Positions 6,709 to 12,920 of a stretch of DNA of 13,646 nt are shown here, piece after piece. Both the position numbers and the translations under genes were made by a program. The DNA is from a virus (Duplodnaviria; Heunggongvirae; Uroviricota; Caudoviricetes). Every line of letters starts with the position of its first letter. Within the stretch, counting starts at the first letter, position 1. The stretch lies in the IMG/VR virus record IMGVR_UViG_2724679293_000014, positions 1-13,646 of that record; one strand, given 5' to 3'. The notes under the pieces were generated by a model that had not been told where the DNA came from, did not search any database, and worked only from the letters and a program-made list of their open reading frames with translations.

Positions 6709-6749
6709 AGCCAGCGTCTTCTTTCAGGTCAGTCGCTGGCTCTTTTTTT
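6709..6749 (+). terminator. Plus-strand rho-independent terminator (module 2), abutting the nanS-p stop codon
   Basis: agccagcg-(loop)-cgctggct followed by cttttttt; paralogous to the hairpin at 6559-6601. Confidence 0.5.
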
Positions 6750-6750
6750 A

Positions 6751-8601
6751 TTATGCTGCCGGTGCATTTATCTCCAGCACCAGACTTTCTATCTCAACGC
6801 CATACGCTGCATTTTTTGTAACATCCGTCAGCGTCAGCGCATTCAGTCCCAGTGTCAGACTGTCTTTTATAACCTGGAATGCCGGGCCAGCCACTCCATT
6901 CAGTTTCGGAGTAACCGTGGCACTGCCGGCGGTGAACACCAGCTCCAGCGTCTGCCAGTCGTTACCGTAATCGCCGAACTCCCCCAGCTTCGTGTTTCCG
7001 GCTTTCCTGTGATGCATCAGATTCACTCTGCCGTCAGTGGTCTGAGTGAAGTACGACATCAGGAACGGATTACCGGTACCCGTCATCGCCACACCATCAG
7101 GAACGGGAGCATCCGTATACAGATAAATCCCCAGCCCGAACTGATTGTTGGTCAGTGCGCCTGACAGGCGGAACTTACAGGTCAGTCTGCCGCCCTGTGT
7201 CAGCAGGGTAATTGCGTCATCCACCGGATGCGTCAGGGACCAGGTTTTATTGCTCTGCTTGGCGATCTTAAATACACCACCCGACAACTGAATTCCGCCA
7301 TCCTTAATGCTCCAGCCCTGCGCAGCAGCCTCTCCGGCTGCCGGCAGCAGGGAGATTGTGCGAACGGACGTATCTGCAGACGGACCCGATGGCGTGTTGC
7401 CGCCGGGCGAGGGTTTGATTTCCGGTGCCTTACCACTGATGAAGGCTGAGGTGCGCCCGGCTGCGTTCAGAATAGCGGTTGCCAGACGATCCGGAATAAT
7501 GCTCCTGCGCGCCCATGAACTGAAATGTGTCGGGCGGTTTGATGATACCTGGTTTCCATTCGTTCTCGATGCCGCACCGTAATATCCTGATGCCGGAATA
7601 TCCGGATCTTCTGCCGGCGCGTTAGTGGCGGTATTGACACCGTTACCGTCTGTCATGAAGGACACAAAATAAACGCCCTCACTCTCCCTGTTTTTATACC
7701 CGCCGTACACGGTGTCGTACTGGGTAGCGTATGTATTTTTCCAGTAATACGTCGTGTCACCACAAATCCACGGCACATCTGCAGCACTGCCACCATGGCA
7801 CTGCGCGTTAAACACGGAGAGGTCAGCACGAAACTGTGTCAGCATGGCTGTAAACAGCGCAGGTTGCTGTGCGTGGGTGGCGGCGCTCATGTCAAACTCT
7901 CCCTGCATCCAGCACACCGCCAGCAACACATTTTTCGGGTTCTTCTGTAATGCAGCTTTAGTGCGCGCAATCAGGTCCTGATATAACGGTTTACCCACAC
8001 CCCAGCGTGCCGAATCCTGGCTGGCCCCCGTGTCCGCACTGAATGTCCCCTCCGCGCCCTGGGTGAATGCCGAACCACCACGACAGCATGGTACCAGCAG
8101 GATCCCCGCGTTATTCGGGATATACGGAAGCAGTTTTTTGGCAATATGTAAGCCCTGGCCGACACAGCCGTACTGCCCTTTGCTCAGGTCTGCCTTCGGA
8201 TGATTCAGCGTACTCATATCCTGCACATCATGCAGGCAGTGGTCGGCCGGAATAATATCGTTATATCTGCAGGCAGCCCCACCCGGCGTCACTGTACTGC
8301 GGCGCGCCAGCTGTTTAATGCGCGGATCCGGAGCATCGTATGAATCCGGCAGCGGAAGCCCTTCACCGTAAGCCATGGCATTGGACTGCCCGGCCAGTAC
8401 GATGACGTAGTACCAATCCGGCTCAGTTGCACCACTGACCACCACATCACCTTCTGCTGTAATCGCCTGCATCAGGGTATAAGGGGTTATGGCCACCGGA
8501 CTACCAAACGGCTGCCAGCCCTCTTTCAGTTTGTGTGTCAGCTTTTCCGCAAGGTCTGACGGCGACGCCGCCCTGACAACATCATAATGTTTAAATGTCA
8601 T
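6751..8601 (-). CDS. nanS-p: Prophage-encoded sialate O-acetylesterase (NanS-p-like; N-terminal DUF1737 plus SASA esterase domain), 616 aa
   Basis: Track ORF with strong SD (GGGAGGAATA-ATG); N-terminus MTFKHYDVVRAASPSDLAEKLTHKLKEGWQPFGSPV and esterase motif VIVLAGQSNAMAYGEG are typical of NanS-p proteins found between Q/stx and the lysis genes of EHEC lambdoid prophages. Confidence 0.85.
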   Translation of the reverse strand: MTFKHYDVVRAASPSDLAEKLTHKLKEGWQPFGSPVAITPYTLMQAITAEGDVVVSGATEPDWYYVIVLAGQSNAMAYGEGLPLPDSYDAPDPRIKQLARRSTVTPGGAACRYNDIIPADHCLHDVQDMSTLNHPKADLSKGQYGCVGQGLHIAKKLLPYIPNNAGILLVPCCRGGSAFTQGAEGTFSADTGASQDSARWGVGKPLYQDLIARTKAALQKNPKNVLLAVCWMQGEFDMSAATHAQQPALFTAMLTQFRADLSVFNAQCHGGSAADVPWICGDTTYYWKNTYATQYDTVYGGYKNRESEGVYFVSFMTDGNGVNTATNAPAEDPDIPASGYYGAASRTNGNQVSSNRPTHFSSWARRSIIPDRLATAILNAAGRTSAFISGKAPEIKPSPGGNTPSGPSADTSVRTISLLPAAGEAAAQGWSIKDGGIQLSGGVFKIAKQSNKTWSLTHPVDDAITLLTQGGRLTCKFRLSGALTNNQFGLGIYLYTDAPVPDGVAMTGTGNPFLMSYFTQTTDGRVNLMHHRKAGNTKLGEFGDYGNDWQTLELVFTAGSATVTPKLNGVAGPAFQVIKDSLTLGLNALTLTDVTKNAAYGVEIESLVLEINAPAA

Positions 8602-8644
8602 TATTCCTCCCGGCCGGGATAGTGTATTAAATCAGATATGGAGT

Positions 8645-8689
8645 GGGCTGTAGTCCGGAAGCCTGAATGACACACGGGGACTACAGCCC
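8645..8689 (-). promoter_or_regulatory. Strong hairpin (12-bp perfect stem, about 21-nt loop) in the 5' leader of nanS-p
   Basis: gggctgtagtcc ... ggactacagccc; no adjacent U-run on either strand, so it is not a canonical terminator. Confidence 0.4.
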
Positions 8690-8784
8690 AAGAAATGAAG
8701 AAGGCCACGCAGTTGCGCAGCCTGATAAACCCTGGTTAAAATCCACACGATAACAACACAACAATATCAGTATCTCATGCTATT

Positions 8785-8846
8785 GCCCGAACCCATTCGG
8801 GCATTTTTTACCCATAAAAAATGCCCCTCCGGAGAGGGGCATTTTT
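8785..8846. terminator. Terminator cluster: plus-strand hairpin with T-run (8785-8809) and a bidirectional terminator (8816-8846)
   Basis: gcccgaacccattcgggc+atttttt; aaaaaatgcccctc-cgga-gaggggcattttt with A/T tracts on both flanks. On the minus strand the second would stop late transcription ahead of nanS-p unless antiterminated. Confidence 0.6.
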
Positions 8847-9043
8847 GCATGCACATTCTTTTTCTTGCATGGTGCCGGGTGCCTCCCGGTGAATTCAGTA
8901 TCAGCACCTGAATCCGCGATTATCACATATACCTACTTGCTGATTGCCCCTCCGCACAGGGGGATTCACCATGCAGTAGTATTTTTAATAAACAGCAAAT
9001 AAAAAAATCAAGCATTATGCAGGCTGTTTCTTTTTATCACCGG

Positions 9044-9175
9044 CTACAGCAATACCACAATGCCGCAGACCAGCACCCCATCCGCCAGCACCGACATGAT
9101 TCTGCTGGTGAAATCCACCATCACCACCAGAAACAGCAGGAGTGCAGCCACAGCCAGGCGCAGTTTTACCGTCAC
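9044..9175 (-). CDS. Hypothetical 43-aa two-helix membrane peptide, GTG start overlapping the TGA of the TerB-like frame (GTGA)
   Basis: Hand translation VTVKLRLAVAALLLFLVVMVDFTSRIMSVLADGVLVCGIVVLL. Two other frames are also open here (track ORF 9015..9302), so coding status is uncertain. Confidence 0.25.
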   Translation of the reverse strand: MTVKLRLAVAALLLFLVVMVDFTSRIMSVLADGVLVCGIVVLL

Positions 9176-9607
9176 AGGTGATTCTCCAGACGAAGACCCA
9201 GAACACCGGCAATCTCTTCCAGCACCTTGCGCTCTTCCGGCTCAATTTCGCCGTCTGCCTCCGCAATGGCCACCGCCACATCCAGCACATCTTCCGCTTC
9301 ACGCGTATCGTGTTTCACATCCTCGATCTCACGTAACGCCGCACGACGACCAGTTTTAAAGTTCGTATCCAGCTGACCGATAATGGTTGCGCTAATCGCA
9401 TTAATTTCTGACGTAAACGCGGACAGCGCAGGCTGATTACGCAGTACCTGTTCGATCTTCGCTTTCTAGGAAGCCTCACATTCACCATCTGCACAGGCCA
9501 CCAGGTAGGCAGCATTAATAACCGCCTGTGCCAGATCGCGTTTCTCAAACTTTCCTTTTTCCGGTTAACGTGACACACCAATAACTCTTGTCGAAAAAGC
9601 CAGCAAG
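9172..9607 (-). pseudogene. TerB-family (tellurite-resistance TerB-like fold) gene remnant, disrupted by an in-frame amber codon and at least one frameshift, with no usable start
   Basis: Minus-strand hand translation: ...GFFDKSYWCVTLTGK (frame 1), then a frame change within ggaaaaagg, then PEKGKFEKRDLAQAVINAAYLVACADGECEAS-TAG-KAKIEQVLRNQPALSAF...VAVAIAEADGEIEPEERKVLEEIAGVLGLRLENHL. This aligns in order with E. coli TerB as recalled (MSFFDK...FMQGTVAVCARIAVASDG...IAVAKSDGNFDDDEKSAVREIARSLGF). The amber is at plus coordinates 9466-9468. Confidence 0.55.
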
Positions 9608-9667
9608 CTGAAAGACCGGTATTCACAACCACCAGCGCGTTTACTGTACTGGCGTGATTTCAGTCAT

Positions 9668-9692
9668 AAAAAAACCCGCCTGGCGACGGGTG
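9668..9692 (-). terminator. tR'-like intrinsic terminator ending a roughly 60-nt pR' leader transcript
   Basis: Minus strand ACACCCGTCGCCAGGCGGGTTTTTTT, about 40-60 nt downstream of the predicted pR' start. Confidence 0.5.
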
Positions 9693-9738
9693 TAAAAAAT
9701 CTTCTAACGTCAGGCATAAAACGCCCATCGTTAGGGCA

Positions 9739-9766
9739 AATTTACCACAGATTCGGGAAAAATCAA
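9739..9766 (-). promoter_or_regulatory. Late promoter pR' with Q-utilisation region (-35 TTGATT, -10 TAAATT, then AACGATGGG pause-type sequence)
   Basis: Minus strand TTGATTTTTCCCGAATCTGTGGTAAATTTGCCCTAACGATGGGCG compares with lambda pR' TTGACTTATTGAATAAAATTGGGTAAATTTGACTCAACGATGGG from memory; it lies immediately downstream of the Q stop codon. Confidence 0.65.
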
Positions 9767-9771
9767 CAAAG

Positions 9772-10593
9772 CTATCTGGTCACCTTTTTCAGTTGTTGTT
9801 CTGCCCATGCTTCTTCAATATCAAACTGCACCACCAGCGTATCGTAAAAACGTTTAACTGTTTTTTTCCATGTATCAAGAGATATGGCATCGGTTACATT
9901 ACATATGGCATTAAATGCCTCCGTTGAAGGTAATCTTTCATAGCCACGACCACCACAACGCTGGCAGTCTCTGATAACAGGCATACCACGTTTTACCGAC
10001 TCTTCACGATGAATGGCAACACCGCGCCCACGACAATCTTTACAGGCGGTGGAAACCTCCCCCTTCCCTCCACACTCCGGACAGGCAACTTTTACCACCT
10101 CCCTGACTTTTTTCCATTCCTCCCAGTAAGACGGATACACGCCTTTTGTGCACTTTGCCCACACTGGCGGCTTACCATCCGGATACTGGATCTTGTTTGT
10201 AAAAACCTCGCTTTCAATAAATTTTTTTCCGTGACAACAGGGGCACTGTTTTTTGCTCGCCGCGCTACGGGCATAATCTTCAAACGCATACGAAGCCATA
10301 ATACGCATCACTGCCGGTTTTATTTCTGCCGGGAGTTTTCTTAACGCCGCCACGCGATCACACCGACTGAGTGCATATTCTGTCAGCAATTCTGTTGCCC
10401 GCTCTCTGTCATTCATACTAATGCCCATTTTCCCAAGGAACGCAGAAAACCCCATCTCAGCCCAATTCTGTGTCATGCCCTGCGCGGCCATCACATCAGT
10501 GATACTCAGCGTATCTTTCGACGTTGAGGCCGATGCATCAGTCAGGCCGAGGGATTTTGGGGAGTAGTATTTCGGTAAATCTTCCAGTTTCAT
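9772..10593 (-). CDS. Q: Late-gene antiterminator Q (lambda Q family), 273 aa, with an enlarged Cys-rich zinc-binding region
   Basis: KYYSPKS, TDVMAA and YDTLVVQFDIEE motifs match lambda Q (KFHSPKS, TDVMAA, YDALVVQCHKEE). About 65 extra residues carry four CxxC motifs (CPCC, CPEC, CKDC, CQRC). The ATG overlaps the rusA stop as ATGA. Confidence 0.9.
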   Translation of the reverse strand: MKLEDLPKYYSPKSLGLTDASASTSKDTLSITDVMAAQGMTQNWAEMGFSAFLGKMGISMNDRERATELLTEYALSRCDRVAALRKLPAEIKPAVMRIMASYAFEDYARSAASKKQCPCCHGKKFIESEVFTNKIQYPDGKPPVWAKCTKGVYPSYWEEWKKVREVVKVACPECGGKGEVSTACKDCRGRGVAIHREESVKRGMPVIRDCQRCGGRGYERLPSTEAFNAICNVTDAISLDTWKKTVKRFYDTLVVQFDIEEAWAEQQLKKVTR

Positions 10594-10964
10594 TTTTTGA
10601 CCTGCCCTTCAAGCATTATGGGGTAAATCTTCACCCCCAGACGTCCACCAGATACTGGCTGACCACGAACGATATTGATTTCATCAAACTGCTCATCGTC
10701 CATTAACACTCCCGCATGCGTCAGCGCATCCAGCGGTGCTTTCAGGATATTGTCCAGGTCGCGACGACGCTTATCCGGTGGCTCTGCAATCACCTTTATC
10801 GCCAGCCTTCCGGACAGGATTAATTTCAGCCGCTGCTGGCGAACAATAAGCGCCACAGCCCGGCGATAACGCTTTCCCTCCTCCGAGATAAAATATGTGC
10901 TGCCACGACGTCGCCAGTAGGTGTTCACCGTTGGCGGGTAAGGTAAAACCAAATCTATGAGCAT
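10590..10964 (-). CDS. rusA: Holliday junction resolvase RusA (crossover junction endodeoxyribonuclease), 124 aa
   Basis: MLIDLVLPYPPTVNTYWRRRG...DLDNILKAPLDALTHAGVLMDDEQFDEINIVRG is the characteristic RusA pattern; good SD (AGAGGTGA); typical position just upstream of Q. Confidence 0.9.
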   Translation of the reverse strand: MLIDLVLPYPPTVNTYWRRRGSTYFISEEGKRYRRAVALIVRQQRLKLILSGRLAIKVIAEPPDKRRRDLDNILKAPLDALTHAGVLMDDEQFDEINIVRGQPVSGGRLGVKIYPIMLEGQVKK

Positions 10965-10976
10965 CAGTCACCTCTT

Positions 10977-12026
10977 TTACCCAAGCACGCCAGTTGCAAA
11001 GGCGTGATCAAGAAAACGAAAAATTAAATCAACCTGAGAGCCATGCTTTTCTTCGAACGCCAGCGGATCCGCATGAAGCTCGTTGTGATGCTCCCGACAC
11101 AGCGGTAGCGTGAAAATATCGTGAGATTTTGTCCCCATTCCGCCCTGACCATGACCAATCAGGTGATGGGGATCGTCGGCTGGCTTACCACAACACGCAC
11201 ACGGCTGAGTCTTCACCCAGCGTGTGTATTTCTCGTTAACCCAGCGGCGACGTTTAGGTCGTTTCATGAAAGATTCCGGAGACTCAGGATCAACGGCAAT
11301 GCTGACCACCGTCTTTTCCTGTGGTGGGTTCTGTTGCTGGTGGGCGTGAGGCAACGGTGCAAGATTTTTTGTGCGCTGTTTCAATATGCTGGTGGCGGTC
11401 TGCTCTCCCGGTACGATGTCGCTTTCGCGGTACACCGAGCAGATTTTTTCCGCTGGTAATCCCAGCGAGCGACGTAATACCGCTTCCGGTAGCGCGTCCG
11501 CCAGCTGATTGCGGACCGCCCACCAGGATAATTCAGCCAGAGATAATTCACGCTCCTGCGTACCGCTTATTGCGTGACCGATGACGTCAATCATCCATGC
11601 TGACAGGTTTTGATGAGCAAGTTGCTCGAGTGATTCGGATGTCTGGTCACGCAGCTGGTTGTCGCAGTGCCAGCACAACACCATTGCGCCGGTACCATAT
11701 CGGTGAATAACGGTTTCGCTGTGATGATAATCGCCGTGTGGCCACTGGCAGGATTTAATATGGCGCAACAGCCAGTCAGACAATGCACCAGCACCACCAG
11801 CAGCACGAATTACCCGTGCGTTACTGAAAAACGGCAGCAATGTTTTGTCTTCCACCAGCGGCTGGCGAACGGCAGGAACGACCCCGGACGGCAGATTACG
11901 CATGCTTTTCGGTTCCGGCTCCACCAGTAACCGGGTATTGTGGAATACCGGCATGGATTCACGGCCCGGCTTAACGATCACCAGCCCGAGTTCCGGTACC
12001 AGAACAGGTCGAAGTAATACCCGCAC
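10977..12026 (-). CDS. YdfU-like prophage protein (DUF968-type) with Cys/His clusters and a C-terminal HNH-type nuclease motif, 349 aa
   Basis: GTG start with strong SD (GGAGGTAAC-GTG). C-terminal CACCGKPADDPHHLIGHGQGGMGTKSHDIFTLPLCREHHNELHAD and an N-terminal CxxC...HxxH cluster. Same position and length as ydfU of the K-12 Qin prophage as I recall it. Confidence 0.75.
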   Translation of the reverse strand: MRVLLRPVLVPELGLVIVKPGRESMPVFHNTRLLVEPEPKSMRNLPSGVVPAVRQPLVEDKTLLPFFSNARVIRAAGGAGALSDWLLRHIKSCQWPHGDYHHSETVIHRYGTGAMVLCWHCDNQLRDQTSESLEQLAHQNLSAWMIDVIGHAISGTQERELSLAELSWWAVRNQLADALPEAVLRRSLGLPAEKICSVYRESDIVPGEQTATSILKQRTKNLAPLPHAHQQQNPPQEKTVVSIAVDPESPESFMKRPKRRRWVNEKYTRWVKTQPCACCGKPADDPHHLIGHGQGGMGTKSHDIFTLPLCREHHNELHADPLAFEEKHGSQVDLIFRFLDHAFATGVLG

Positions 12027-12027
12027 G

Positions 12028-12306
12028 TTACCTCCAGATGCGTTGCTGGAATGTGCGGGACGGACGCGGTGGGCGTTCGGAGTAAGGAAGCCTGACGGAG
12101 ATTATCCAGTGACGGTAGTCGAGGCTAAGGGCTTTTTTAACCTCGTATCCGCGCCTGCGGTAACACTGAATTATCCATTCAGCCTGCTCTTCAGTGCATG
12201 GTGGATGCTGGAACCAGTCCGATTTGAATGCATGAAAACGCCGTCCGCACCTGCTGGCAAAGACGGCAGAATCATCAGAATTGTGTAATTTGGTATCGTG
12301 CGCCAT
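12028..12306 (-). CDS. Hypothetical small protein (Rem-position gene), about 92 aa from the ATG at 12306
   Basis: The track ORF starts at a TTG (12417) with no SD; the internal ATG at 12306 has an AGAAGAGA-type SD. Its TAA stop lies inside the SD of the downstream YdfU-like gene, suggesting coupling. Confidence 0.45.
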   Translation of the reverse strand: MAHDTKLHNSDDSAVFASRCGRRFHAFKSDWFQHPPCTEEQAEWIIQCYRRRGYEVKKALSLDYRHWIISVRLPYSERPPRPSRTFQQRIWR

Positions 12307-12667: not shown

Positions 12668-12696
12668 CAGATAAAATAAACCCGCCGAAGCGGGTT
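12668..12696 (-). terminator. Rho-independent terminator ending the relB-relE-hokD operon
   Basis: Minus strand AACCCGC-ttcg-GCGGGTT followed by TATTTTATC. Confidence 0.55.
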
Positions 12697-12764
12697 AAGC
12701 GCGGGTGCGTTGAGGATGCCTGACACATCAGAGGCGGCGAGGGATTTCTCCCTCGCCAAGTCTC

Positions 12765-12920
12765 TTACTCCTCAGGTTCGTAGACTGTGAAGACAGCGAC
12801 CTCCGTCTGGCCGGTTCGGATTCGTACCTCGCAGAGGTCTTTCCTCGTTACCAGTGTCGTCACTATGACGGTTAAACAGATGACGATCAGGGCGATTAAC
12901 ATCGCCTTTTGCTGCTTCAT
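12765..12920 (-). CDS. hokD: Hok-family type I toxin HokD (RelF), 51 aa
   Basis: Hand translation MKQQKAMLIALIVICLTVIVTTLVTRKDLCEVRIRTGQTEVAVFTVYEPEE, essentially the K-12 HokD sequence as recalled. Not in the track because it is shorter than the cutoff. Confidence 0.9.
   Translation of the reverse strand: MKQQKAMLIALIVICLTVIVTTLVTRKDLCEVRIRTGQTEVAVFTVYEPEE

Follow-up and report, generated by a model that had tools for sequence, protein, structure and literature searches.

The pairing of a TerB-family protein with a small membrane protein of the DUF3927 family was named in phage P1. Specifically, the P1 genome (AF234172) carries tciA (70233-70658), tciB (70658-70822), and tciC (70822-70929), which are joined by one-base stop/start overlaps. 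The genes adjoin tRNA genes, with tRNA next after tciC. Both tciA and tciB are non-essential for P1 by CRISPRi (PMC10695390), and the P1 annotation assigns a tellurite function "by homology" only. In the PHROGs collection, the corresponding families are phrog_632 ("tellurite resistance") and phrog_1470 ("TciB-like"), both placed in the moron category. Similarly, the N4-like phage Pollock encodes TciA (10079-10528) directly followed by a TciB-like ORF (10529-10690), and adjacent TciA and TciB matches occur in Salmonella phage FSL SP-076, Shigella phage B2, CharmingMan, and others.

Lambdoid phages also carry the module. Intact, adjacent tciA and tciB genes are present in phages Evi (LR597642), JLK-2012 (JQ347801), and PPyecE_EH1910 (LC567835), and in all three, tciA encodes a 143-aa protein that starts MFGIFKKK. 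The order in the intact slot is the terminator tR', tRNA genes, tciA (143 aa, TerB), and tciB (54-55 aa). TciB has two hydrophobic segments and a basic tail, and its start overlaps the tciA stop. In Evi and JLK-2012, the tRNA genes lie downstream of the antiterminator gene Q and precede tciA. When the intact Evi proteins were used as tblastn queries, P1 TciA was recovered at 42-51% identity and P1 TciB at 58%.

The slot that houses these genes has been described in its own right. In enterohemorrhagic E. coli (EHEC), the site downstream of the late promoter pR' consists of a moron coding sequence followed by convergent small RNAs (sRNAs) and a conserved ORF (Tree et al. 2014, PMC4104026). The same study describes the function of one of these sRNAs, AgvB. 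According to a 2026 preprint, TerB is one of the genes conserved in the neighborhood of prophage sRNA loci, and the sRNA STnc100 is often found nearby; the preprint also relates STnc100 to the PasD sRNAs.

Here, we examine a stretch of 13,646 nucleotides of viral DNA, called the window in its entirety below, in which a degraded TerB-like reading frame and a small hydrophobic ORF occupy this slot. We conclude that the interval is, very probably, the dead remnant of the known phage cargo module tciA-tciB in the moron slot of an E. coli lambdoid prophage. The feature is an ordinary one: it is already known and already annotated, the module has a name, and the architecture of the slot is published.

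The moron slot between Q and nanS-p

The elements that frame the slot are as follows.

9772-10593, minus strand: gene for the late-gene antiterminator Q, 273 aa (Pfam PF03589 Antiterm, E=4.7e-50; RefSeq "antitermination protein").
9727-9766, minus strand: core of the late promoter pR', with a -35-like TTGATT at 9766-9761, a TGn plus -10 element TAAATT at 9744-9739, and AACGAT at 9732-9727.
9668-9691, minus strand: tR'-like intrinsic terminator of the short pR' leader RNA, with the stem ACCCGTCGCCAGGCGGGT followed by TTTTTT.
8810-9000, minus strand: STnc100 sRNA gene (full-length match to Rfam RF02076 with 146.2 bits; gathering score 47).
8748-8809, plus strand: AgvB anti-GcvB sRNA gene (match to Rfam RF02702 with 96.5 bits; gathering score 56).
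6751-8601, minus strand: nanS-p-type sialate O-acetylesterase gene (Pfam DUF1737, SASA, and DUF6645; RefSeq "SASA family carbohydrate esterase").

The pR' core, GGTAAATTTGcCctAACGATGGG, can be aligned to lambda DNA immediately beyond the Q gene; the matching segment is GGTAAATTTGCCCTAACGATGGG, at 9746-9724 on the minus strand. We take the roles of its motifs (-10 and pause element) to be those established for lambda pR'. A simple promoter scan did not flag the pR' site (8 of 12 positions matching). At the position of the tR'-like terminator, phage Evi has a hairpin of different sequence.

The remnant lies between Q-pR'-tR' and nanS-p on the late-operon strand. The nanS-p-type gene forms the downstream border of the slot; in related genomes, holin and lysozyme genes lie further downstream, in the region of lysis and packaging genes. 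A first interpretation of this DNA, made from the letters alone (hereafter, the sequence-only reading), had put a pR' leader terminator ahead of the TerB frame and had identified the interval as the moron slot in which Stx phages carry tRNAs and stx. Both assignments hold: the hairpin and T-run at 9691-9668 are found downstream of Q and pR', and the borders are those of a lambdoid moron slot.

Compared with the EHEC pR' moron site (PMC4104026), the window is alike in possessing Q, pR', a moron coding sequence, convergent sRNAs including AgvB, and a conserved ORF. It differs in that its moron coding sequence is a dead tciA plus tciB rather than stx or another live cargo. Both sRNA genes lie between tciB and nanS-p. 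STnc100 sits directly downstream of tciB on the late-operon strand. The AgvB copy, which is convergent with the late operon, nowhere departs from the Rfam model consensus in the alignment shown. In a permissive Rfam scan of 8550-9850, everything beyond STnc100 and AgvB was a sub-threshold match, including an AsxR match that overlaps AgvB. The architecture, taken together with the published site (PMC4104026), suggests that Q-dependent late transcription would proceed through the cargo.

Evi, JLK-2012, and PPyecE_EH1910 carry the module in the corresponding slot, which extends from Q to nanS-p or the lysis genes, and are 90-95% identical to the window at the DNA level. Specifically, Evi is ~95% identical over the joined match from Q to tciB (85% of the query), and the values for JLK-2012 and PPyecE_EH1910 are 91.5% and 90.2%. 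The Evi Q gene has the same length (822 nt) and position, and its pR' region matches. The three phages differ from the window in keeping the tRNA genes, the tciA ATG, codons 1-17, Glu46, and the full 54-55-aa TciB. A tRNA scan of the window revealed no tRNA gene.

The remnant of tciA-tciB and its junction

The features of the interval, all on the minus strand, encode what is left of a TerB-family protein (tciA) and of a small membrane protein of the DUF3927 family (tciB).

9553-9695, minus strand: terminator and post-terminator leader, common to Stx2a phages and not derived from tciA.
9550-9553, minus strand: recombination junction within a short A-rich microhomology (AAAG), located by three-way alignment of the window, Stx2_EH1910, and Evi/PPyecE.
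9172-9552, minus strand: tciA pseudogene (TerB family), codons 18-143 only, with no start codon and with TAA 9567-9565 upstream.
9466-9468, minus strand: nonsense mutation GAG to TAG at Glu46 of tciA; the codon is GAG in Evi and JLK-2012.
9044-9175, minus strand: tciB (DUF3927), 43 aa, with two hydrophobic segments (RefSeq WP_001344632.1).

Both genes score above the gathering thresholds of their Pfam families. With the TAG masked, the tciA translation matches Pfam TerB PF05099 with E=7.9e-11 and 42.7 bits against a cut-off of 24.4, and the intact Evi homolog scores 60.2 bits against the same model. Residues 14-137 of Evi TciA align with the solved Klebsiella TerB structure 2JXU (phmmer, E=4.4e-8). 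The TerB of the Klebsiella ter operon has the same domain, and the paired acidic "ADG.....E" motifs can be recognized; the phage gene differs in standing alone with a DUF3927 partner and in having no terZACDEF context. NCBIfam returns sub-threshold DjlA-like matches only, and no equivalog; these matches arise because DjlA contains a TerB-like segment. The tciB product matches Pfam PF13064 (E=6.8e-12, 45.6 bits against a cut-off of 25) and positions 1-43 of the 54-position PHROG 1470 profile (E=1.6e-21), and its ORF is strongly hydrophobic (GRAVY 2.0).

The tciA reading frame extends from TAA 9567-9565 to TGA 9174-9172 and is broken by TAG 9468-9466. It contains no ATG, and the sole alternative start before the TAG is a GTG ten codons upstream of it. 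Glu46, the residue lost to the TAG, aligns with a glutamate of TerB 2JXU and is a conserved TerB glutamate. With neither a start codon nor codons 1-17, and with the TAG, tciA cannot make the TerB protein. RefSeq records the locus accordingly, as a "tellurite resistance TerB family protein" pseudogene with "internal stop", then a "DUF3927 family protein". Within the dead frame, a 48-aa GTG-initiated ORF (9318-9172, minus strand) corresponds to the C-terminal half of the TerB domain. A 48-position PHROGs family, phrog_3920, matches precisely this fragment (E=7e-36), which suggests that the pseudogene remnant has repeatedly been annotated as a protein in phage records.

At the other end, the tciA TGA (9174-9172) overlaps the tciB GTG (9175-9173) in GTGA 9175-9172, and a GGAG lies 8 nt upstream of the GTG. 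The tciB gene carries a lesion of its own: TGG is changed to TAG at 9046-9044, which removes 12 C-terminal residues from an intact form of 55 aa. Evi has TGG at this codon and continues for 12 further residues (WPVIKRNSLHNA), and a second prophage copy in an O145 strain likewise keeps the TGG. Thus, a full-length TciB of ~54-55 aa with a basic C-terminal tail is not present in the window.

Much of this anatomy had been anticipated. The sequence-only reading proposed a degraded TerB-family cargo gene coupled to a small membrane ORF. It described a translation that aligns with TerB, the absence of an in-frame ATG, an in-frame TAG at 9466-9468, and a TGA overlapping a GTG that opens a 43-codon hydrophobic ORF. 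The Pfam TerB and DUF3927 matches, the codon listing, the GAG of the intact relatives, and the hydropathy of the small ORF agree with each of these points. The nonsense lesion in tciB had been missed. The reading also held that the pairing could not be placed in any described phage module, which is incorrect: a TerB-domain gene directly upstream of, and overlapping, a DUF3927 gene on the same strand is tciA-tciB, named in P1 and represented by PHROG 632 and 1470. The check proposed in that reading gives a positive result: intact homologs with a conserved downstream small membrane ORF exist, and they point to a known module, not a new one. The P1 genes resemble the window in specifying a TerB protein of ~141-143 aa and then a DUF3927 protein of ~54 aa, with stop/start overlap. 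Relative to P1, the window has its module in a lambdoid late-operon slot, tciC is not seen, tciA is truncated and carries the nonsense mutation, and tciB is tail-less.

How tciA lost its 5' end was the point on which the sequence-only reading went astray. It had proposed a frame change near an A5 run at about 9566-9574, that is, a full-length tciA with a simple frameshift whose N-terminus persists in another frame. The notion has some appeal, as "AGFFDKS" in frame 2 recalls the TerB N-terminus MSFFDK, and MAFFT lines up a few bases here. However, the A5 run is at 9560-9556, and the frame is closed upstream by the TAA at 9567-9565. When 9553-9672 was aligned locally with the 5' end of tciA, both as DNA and as protein, the upstream "GFFDK" resemblance to TerB proved to be at chance: of 1000 shuffles in each case, 238 (DNA) and 230 (protein) scored as high. 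Homology to intact tciA begins abruptly at ~9552, at codon 18 (AAG TTT GAG, encoding Lys18-Phe19-Glu20), and identity falls there from more than 90% to background.

What lies upstream has a different source. The segment 9780-9551 is 99.6% identical to the Q-proximal leader of the Stx2a phage Stx2_EH1910, in which unrelated genes come next. Within it, 9695-9551 is ~90% identical to many Stx2a phages, and in those phages a small ORF, a DNA methylase gene, tRNAs, and stx2 follow. In the intact loci, the DNA upstream of tciA is of different sequence and includes tRNA genes; relative to those loci, the window lacks both tciA codons 1-17 and the tRNA genes. We therefore regard a frameshift as very improbable. 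The abrupt start of homology, with a Stx2a leader ahead of it, indicates a 5' truncation of tciA at a mosaic junction.

The leader itself shows a further pattern. In Stx2a phages that have a different, 127-aa Q, the tR' hairpin and the next ~120 nt are conserved at 84-99.6% identity, while the promoter-proximal part, presumed to be the Q-loading region, differs. Conservation of the leader despite a different Q indicates that the terminator and the leader beyond it constitute their own recombination module, distinct from Q and the promoter-proximal region. The 9551-9695 leader segment also contains an 8-codon ORF (ATGACTGAAATCACGCCAGTACAGTAA).

Spread across E. coli genomes and order of the lesions

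A stop codon and a missing 5' end in a single record could reflect sequencing or assembly errors in an otherwise intact gene. We consider that explanation to have next to no chance of being correct. Over 9000-9780, a stretch of 781 bp, at least 12 complete E. coli genomes match the window with 100% identity; they were sequenced independently, include O157:H7 and O145 strains, and derive from dog, cattle, and human isolates. The junction, counted as full coverage of an 81-nt probe across it, turns up in 501 of 5426 complete E. coli genomes (~9%), and the exact 57-mer around the tciA TAG in 529 of 650 matching records. The same lesions recur in a second prophage of one genome, and several assemblies carry the RefSeq pseudogene flag. 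The sequence-only reading had left open whether the gene was decaying or affected by sequencing error; lesions that are identical across genomes establish decay and dispose of error.

The lesions did not arise together. The exact 57-mer around the tciB TAG occurs in 96 of 699 matching records, and the tail-less allele is thus a minority variant. A second prophage of E. coli O145 RM9154-C1 combines the junction and the tciA TAG with an intact tciB TGG, and it differs from the window at 3 positions within 781 aligned bases. This copy shows that the tciB nonsense mutation is younger than the junction and the tciA TAG. Judged from these sequences, the junction and the tciA nonsense mutation are the older, widely spread lesions, and the tciB nonsense mutation is the younger.

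Carrier genomes often contain the remnant more than once. The median number of sites per carrier genome is 6 for the tciB region (maximum 10) and 3 for the tciA TAG region, meaning that the same dead allele resides in several prophages of one genome. Several copies per genome fit prophage-to-prophage recombination. Persistence of a pseudogene in ~9% of complete genomes could be a sign of retention; clonal descent and prophage-to-prophage recombination explain it equally well.

Related prophages add to this picture. In a related O157 prophage (FDAARGOS_293; L001 7403-7651, L009 6130-6378), the DUF1327 gene beside the holin gene is also annotated as a truncated pseudogene, a further sign of late-region decay. 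The window is collinear with the best-matching O157 prophage only over ~6736-12272 (96.7% identity), and a RelE/ParE-HTH pair of the O157 prophage is apparently absent or replaced in the window (12678-12825 versus L009 13499-13646). The loss of collinearity and the RelE/ParE-HTH difference indicate further mosaicism.

Origin, function, and meaning of the remnant

The remnant carries three lesions. In one, illegitimate or microhomology recombination fused a Stx2a-phage-type leader to tciA codon 18; the tRNAs were lost in the process, as were the first 17 codons with their ATG and ribosome-binding site. In another, a GAG to TAG nonsense mutation struck the conserved Glu46 of tciA. The third came later, when a TGG to TAG change removed the 12-residue C-terminal tail of TciB. 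The DNA of the interval is presumably carried passively on the Q-antiterminated late transcript, which we infer to read through it. The lesions themselves argue that the function of tciA-tciB has been lost.

One alternative is that the TAG is read through, either by programmed recoding or by a phage suppressor tRNA, and related phages do have tRNA genes in this slot. The window, however, has none, the TAG replaces a conserved Glu, and the start codon and first 17 codons are absent regardless of the TAG. The probability that the TAG is read through in this manner is accordingly negligible.

A different proposal is that the remnant is partly functional, with the 43-aa TciB or the 48-aa half-TerB ORF expressed late and endowed with an activity of its own. 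The tail-less TciB peptide might indeed still be translated, because its GTG start and the GGAG 8 nt upstream have been kept; its 43-aa product exists as RefSeq protein WP_001344632.1, and the locus is widespread. Fragments equivalent to the 48-aa ORF are common enough in phage records to form phrog_3920. Several observations stand against such activity. Any coupling through the stop/start overlap is lost when tciA is untranslated, the conserved basic tail of TciB is missing (the match ends at profile position 43 of 54), and the tail-less allele is confined to the minority of records given above. The peptide would be made without coupling to tciA translation, without the basic tail, and without its partner. 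The 48-aa ORF comprises half a domain, with a GAGG just 2 nt from its GTG, and phrog_3920 is explained more simply by repeated annotation of the same pseudogene. On balance, we judge partial function to be unlikely and favor a dead remnant.

What the intact proteins do can be approached by analogy. TerB has been proposed to be amphitropic, that is, to switch reversibly between cytoplasm and membrane. TerB domains are present in the defense systems Shango, Bunzi, and Dionysus (bioRxiv 10.1101/2025.09.30.679545), and stand-alone TerB proteins occur in jumbo phages, for which superinfection exclusion has been proposed. Owing to the amphitropic proposal and to the TerB domains in defense systems, we infer that the most likely role of intact TciA-TciB would be in membrane-associated stress or superinfection exclusion, with TciB as the membrane partner of TciA. 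Shango SngA, Bunzi BnzA, and Dionysus DinB are similar in that a TerB domain is paired with membrane components. TciA-TciB differs in having other partners. We make no claim of membership in a known defense system; the sole PADLOC match was non-significant (E=0.0035). Our analysis yielded no evidence of tellurite resistance for tciA, and no functional study of either Tci protein emerged from a literature search covering tciA/tciB, DUF3927, and prophage TerB. Thus, the function of tciA-tciB is assigned by homology only, ~20 years after the genes were named.

One can go further and speculate that intact TciA-TciB is a minimal two-component membrane-surveillance or superinfection-exclusion system, in which TerB would be the sensor and a small two-helix protein its membrane partner, and, in addition, that the surviving 43-aa TciB or 48-aa ORF keeps an activity of its own. 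If so, the retained activity would account for the persistence of the remnant in several prophages per STEC genome. We regard this combined proposal as decidedly unlikely.

As a routinely annotated pseudogene of a named cargo module, the locus in itself matters little. Its history offers modest lessons. What appeared to be a frameshift is a mosaic junction, and it shows that cargo is swapped in the pR' slot through short-homology recombination. A single dead allele has made its way into ~9% of the complete E. coli genomes and, within one genome, into several prophages.
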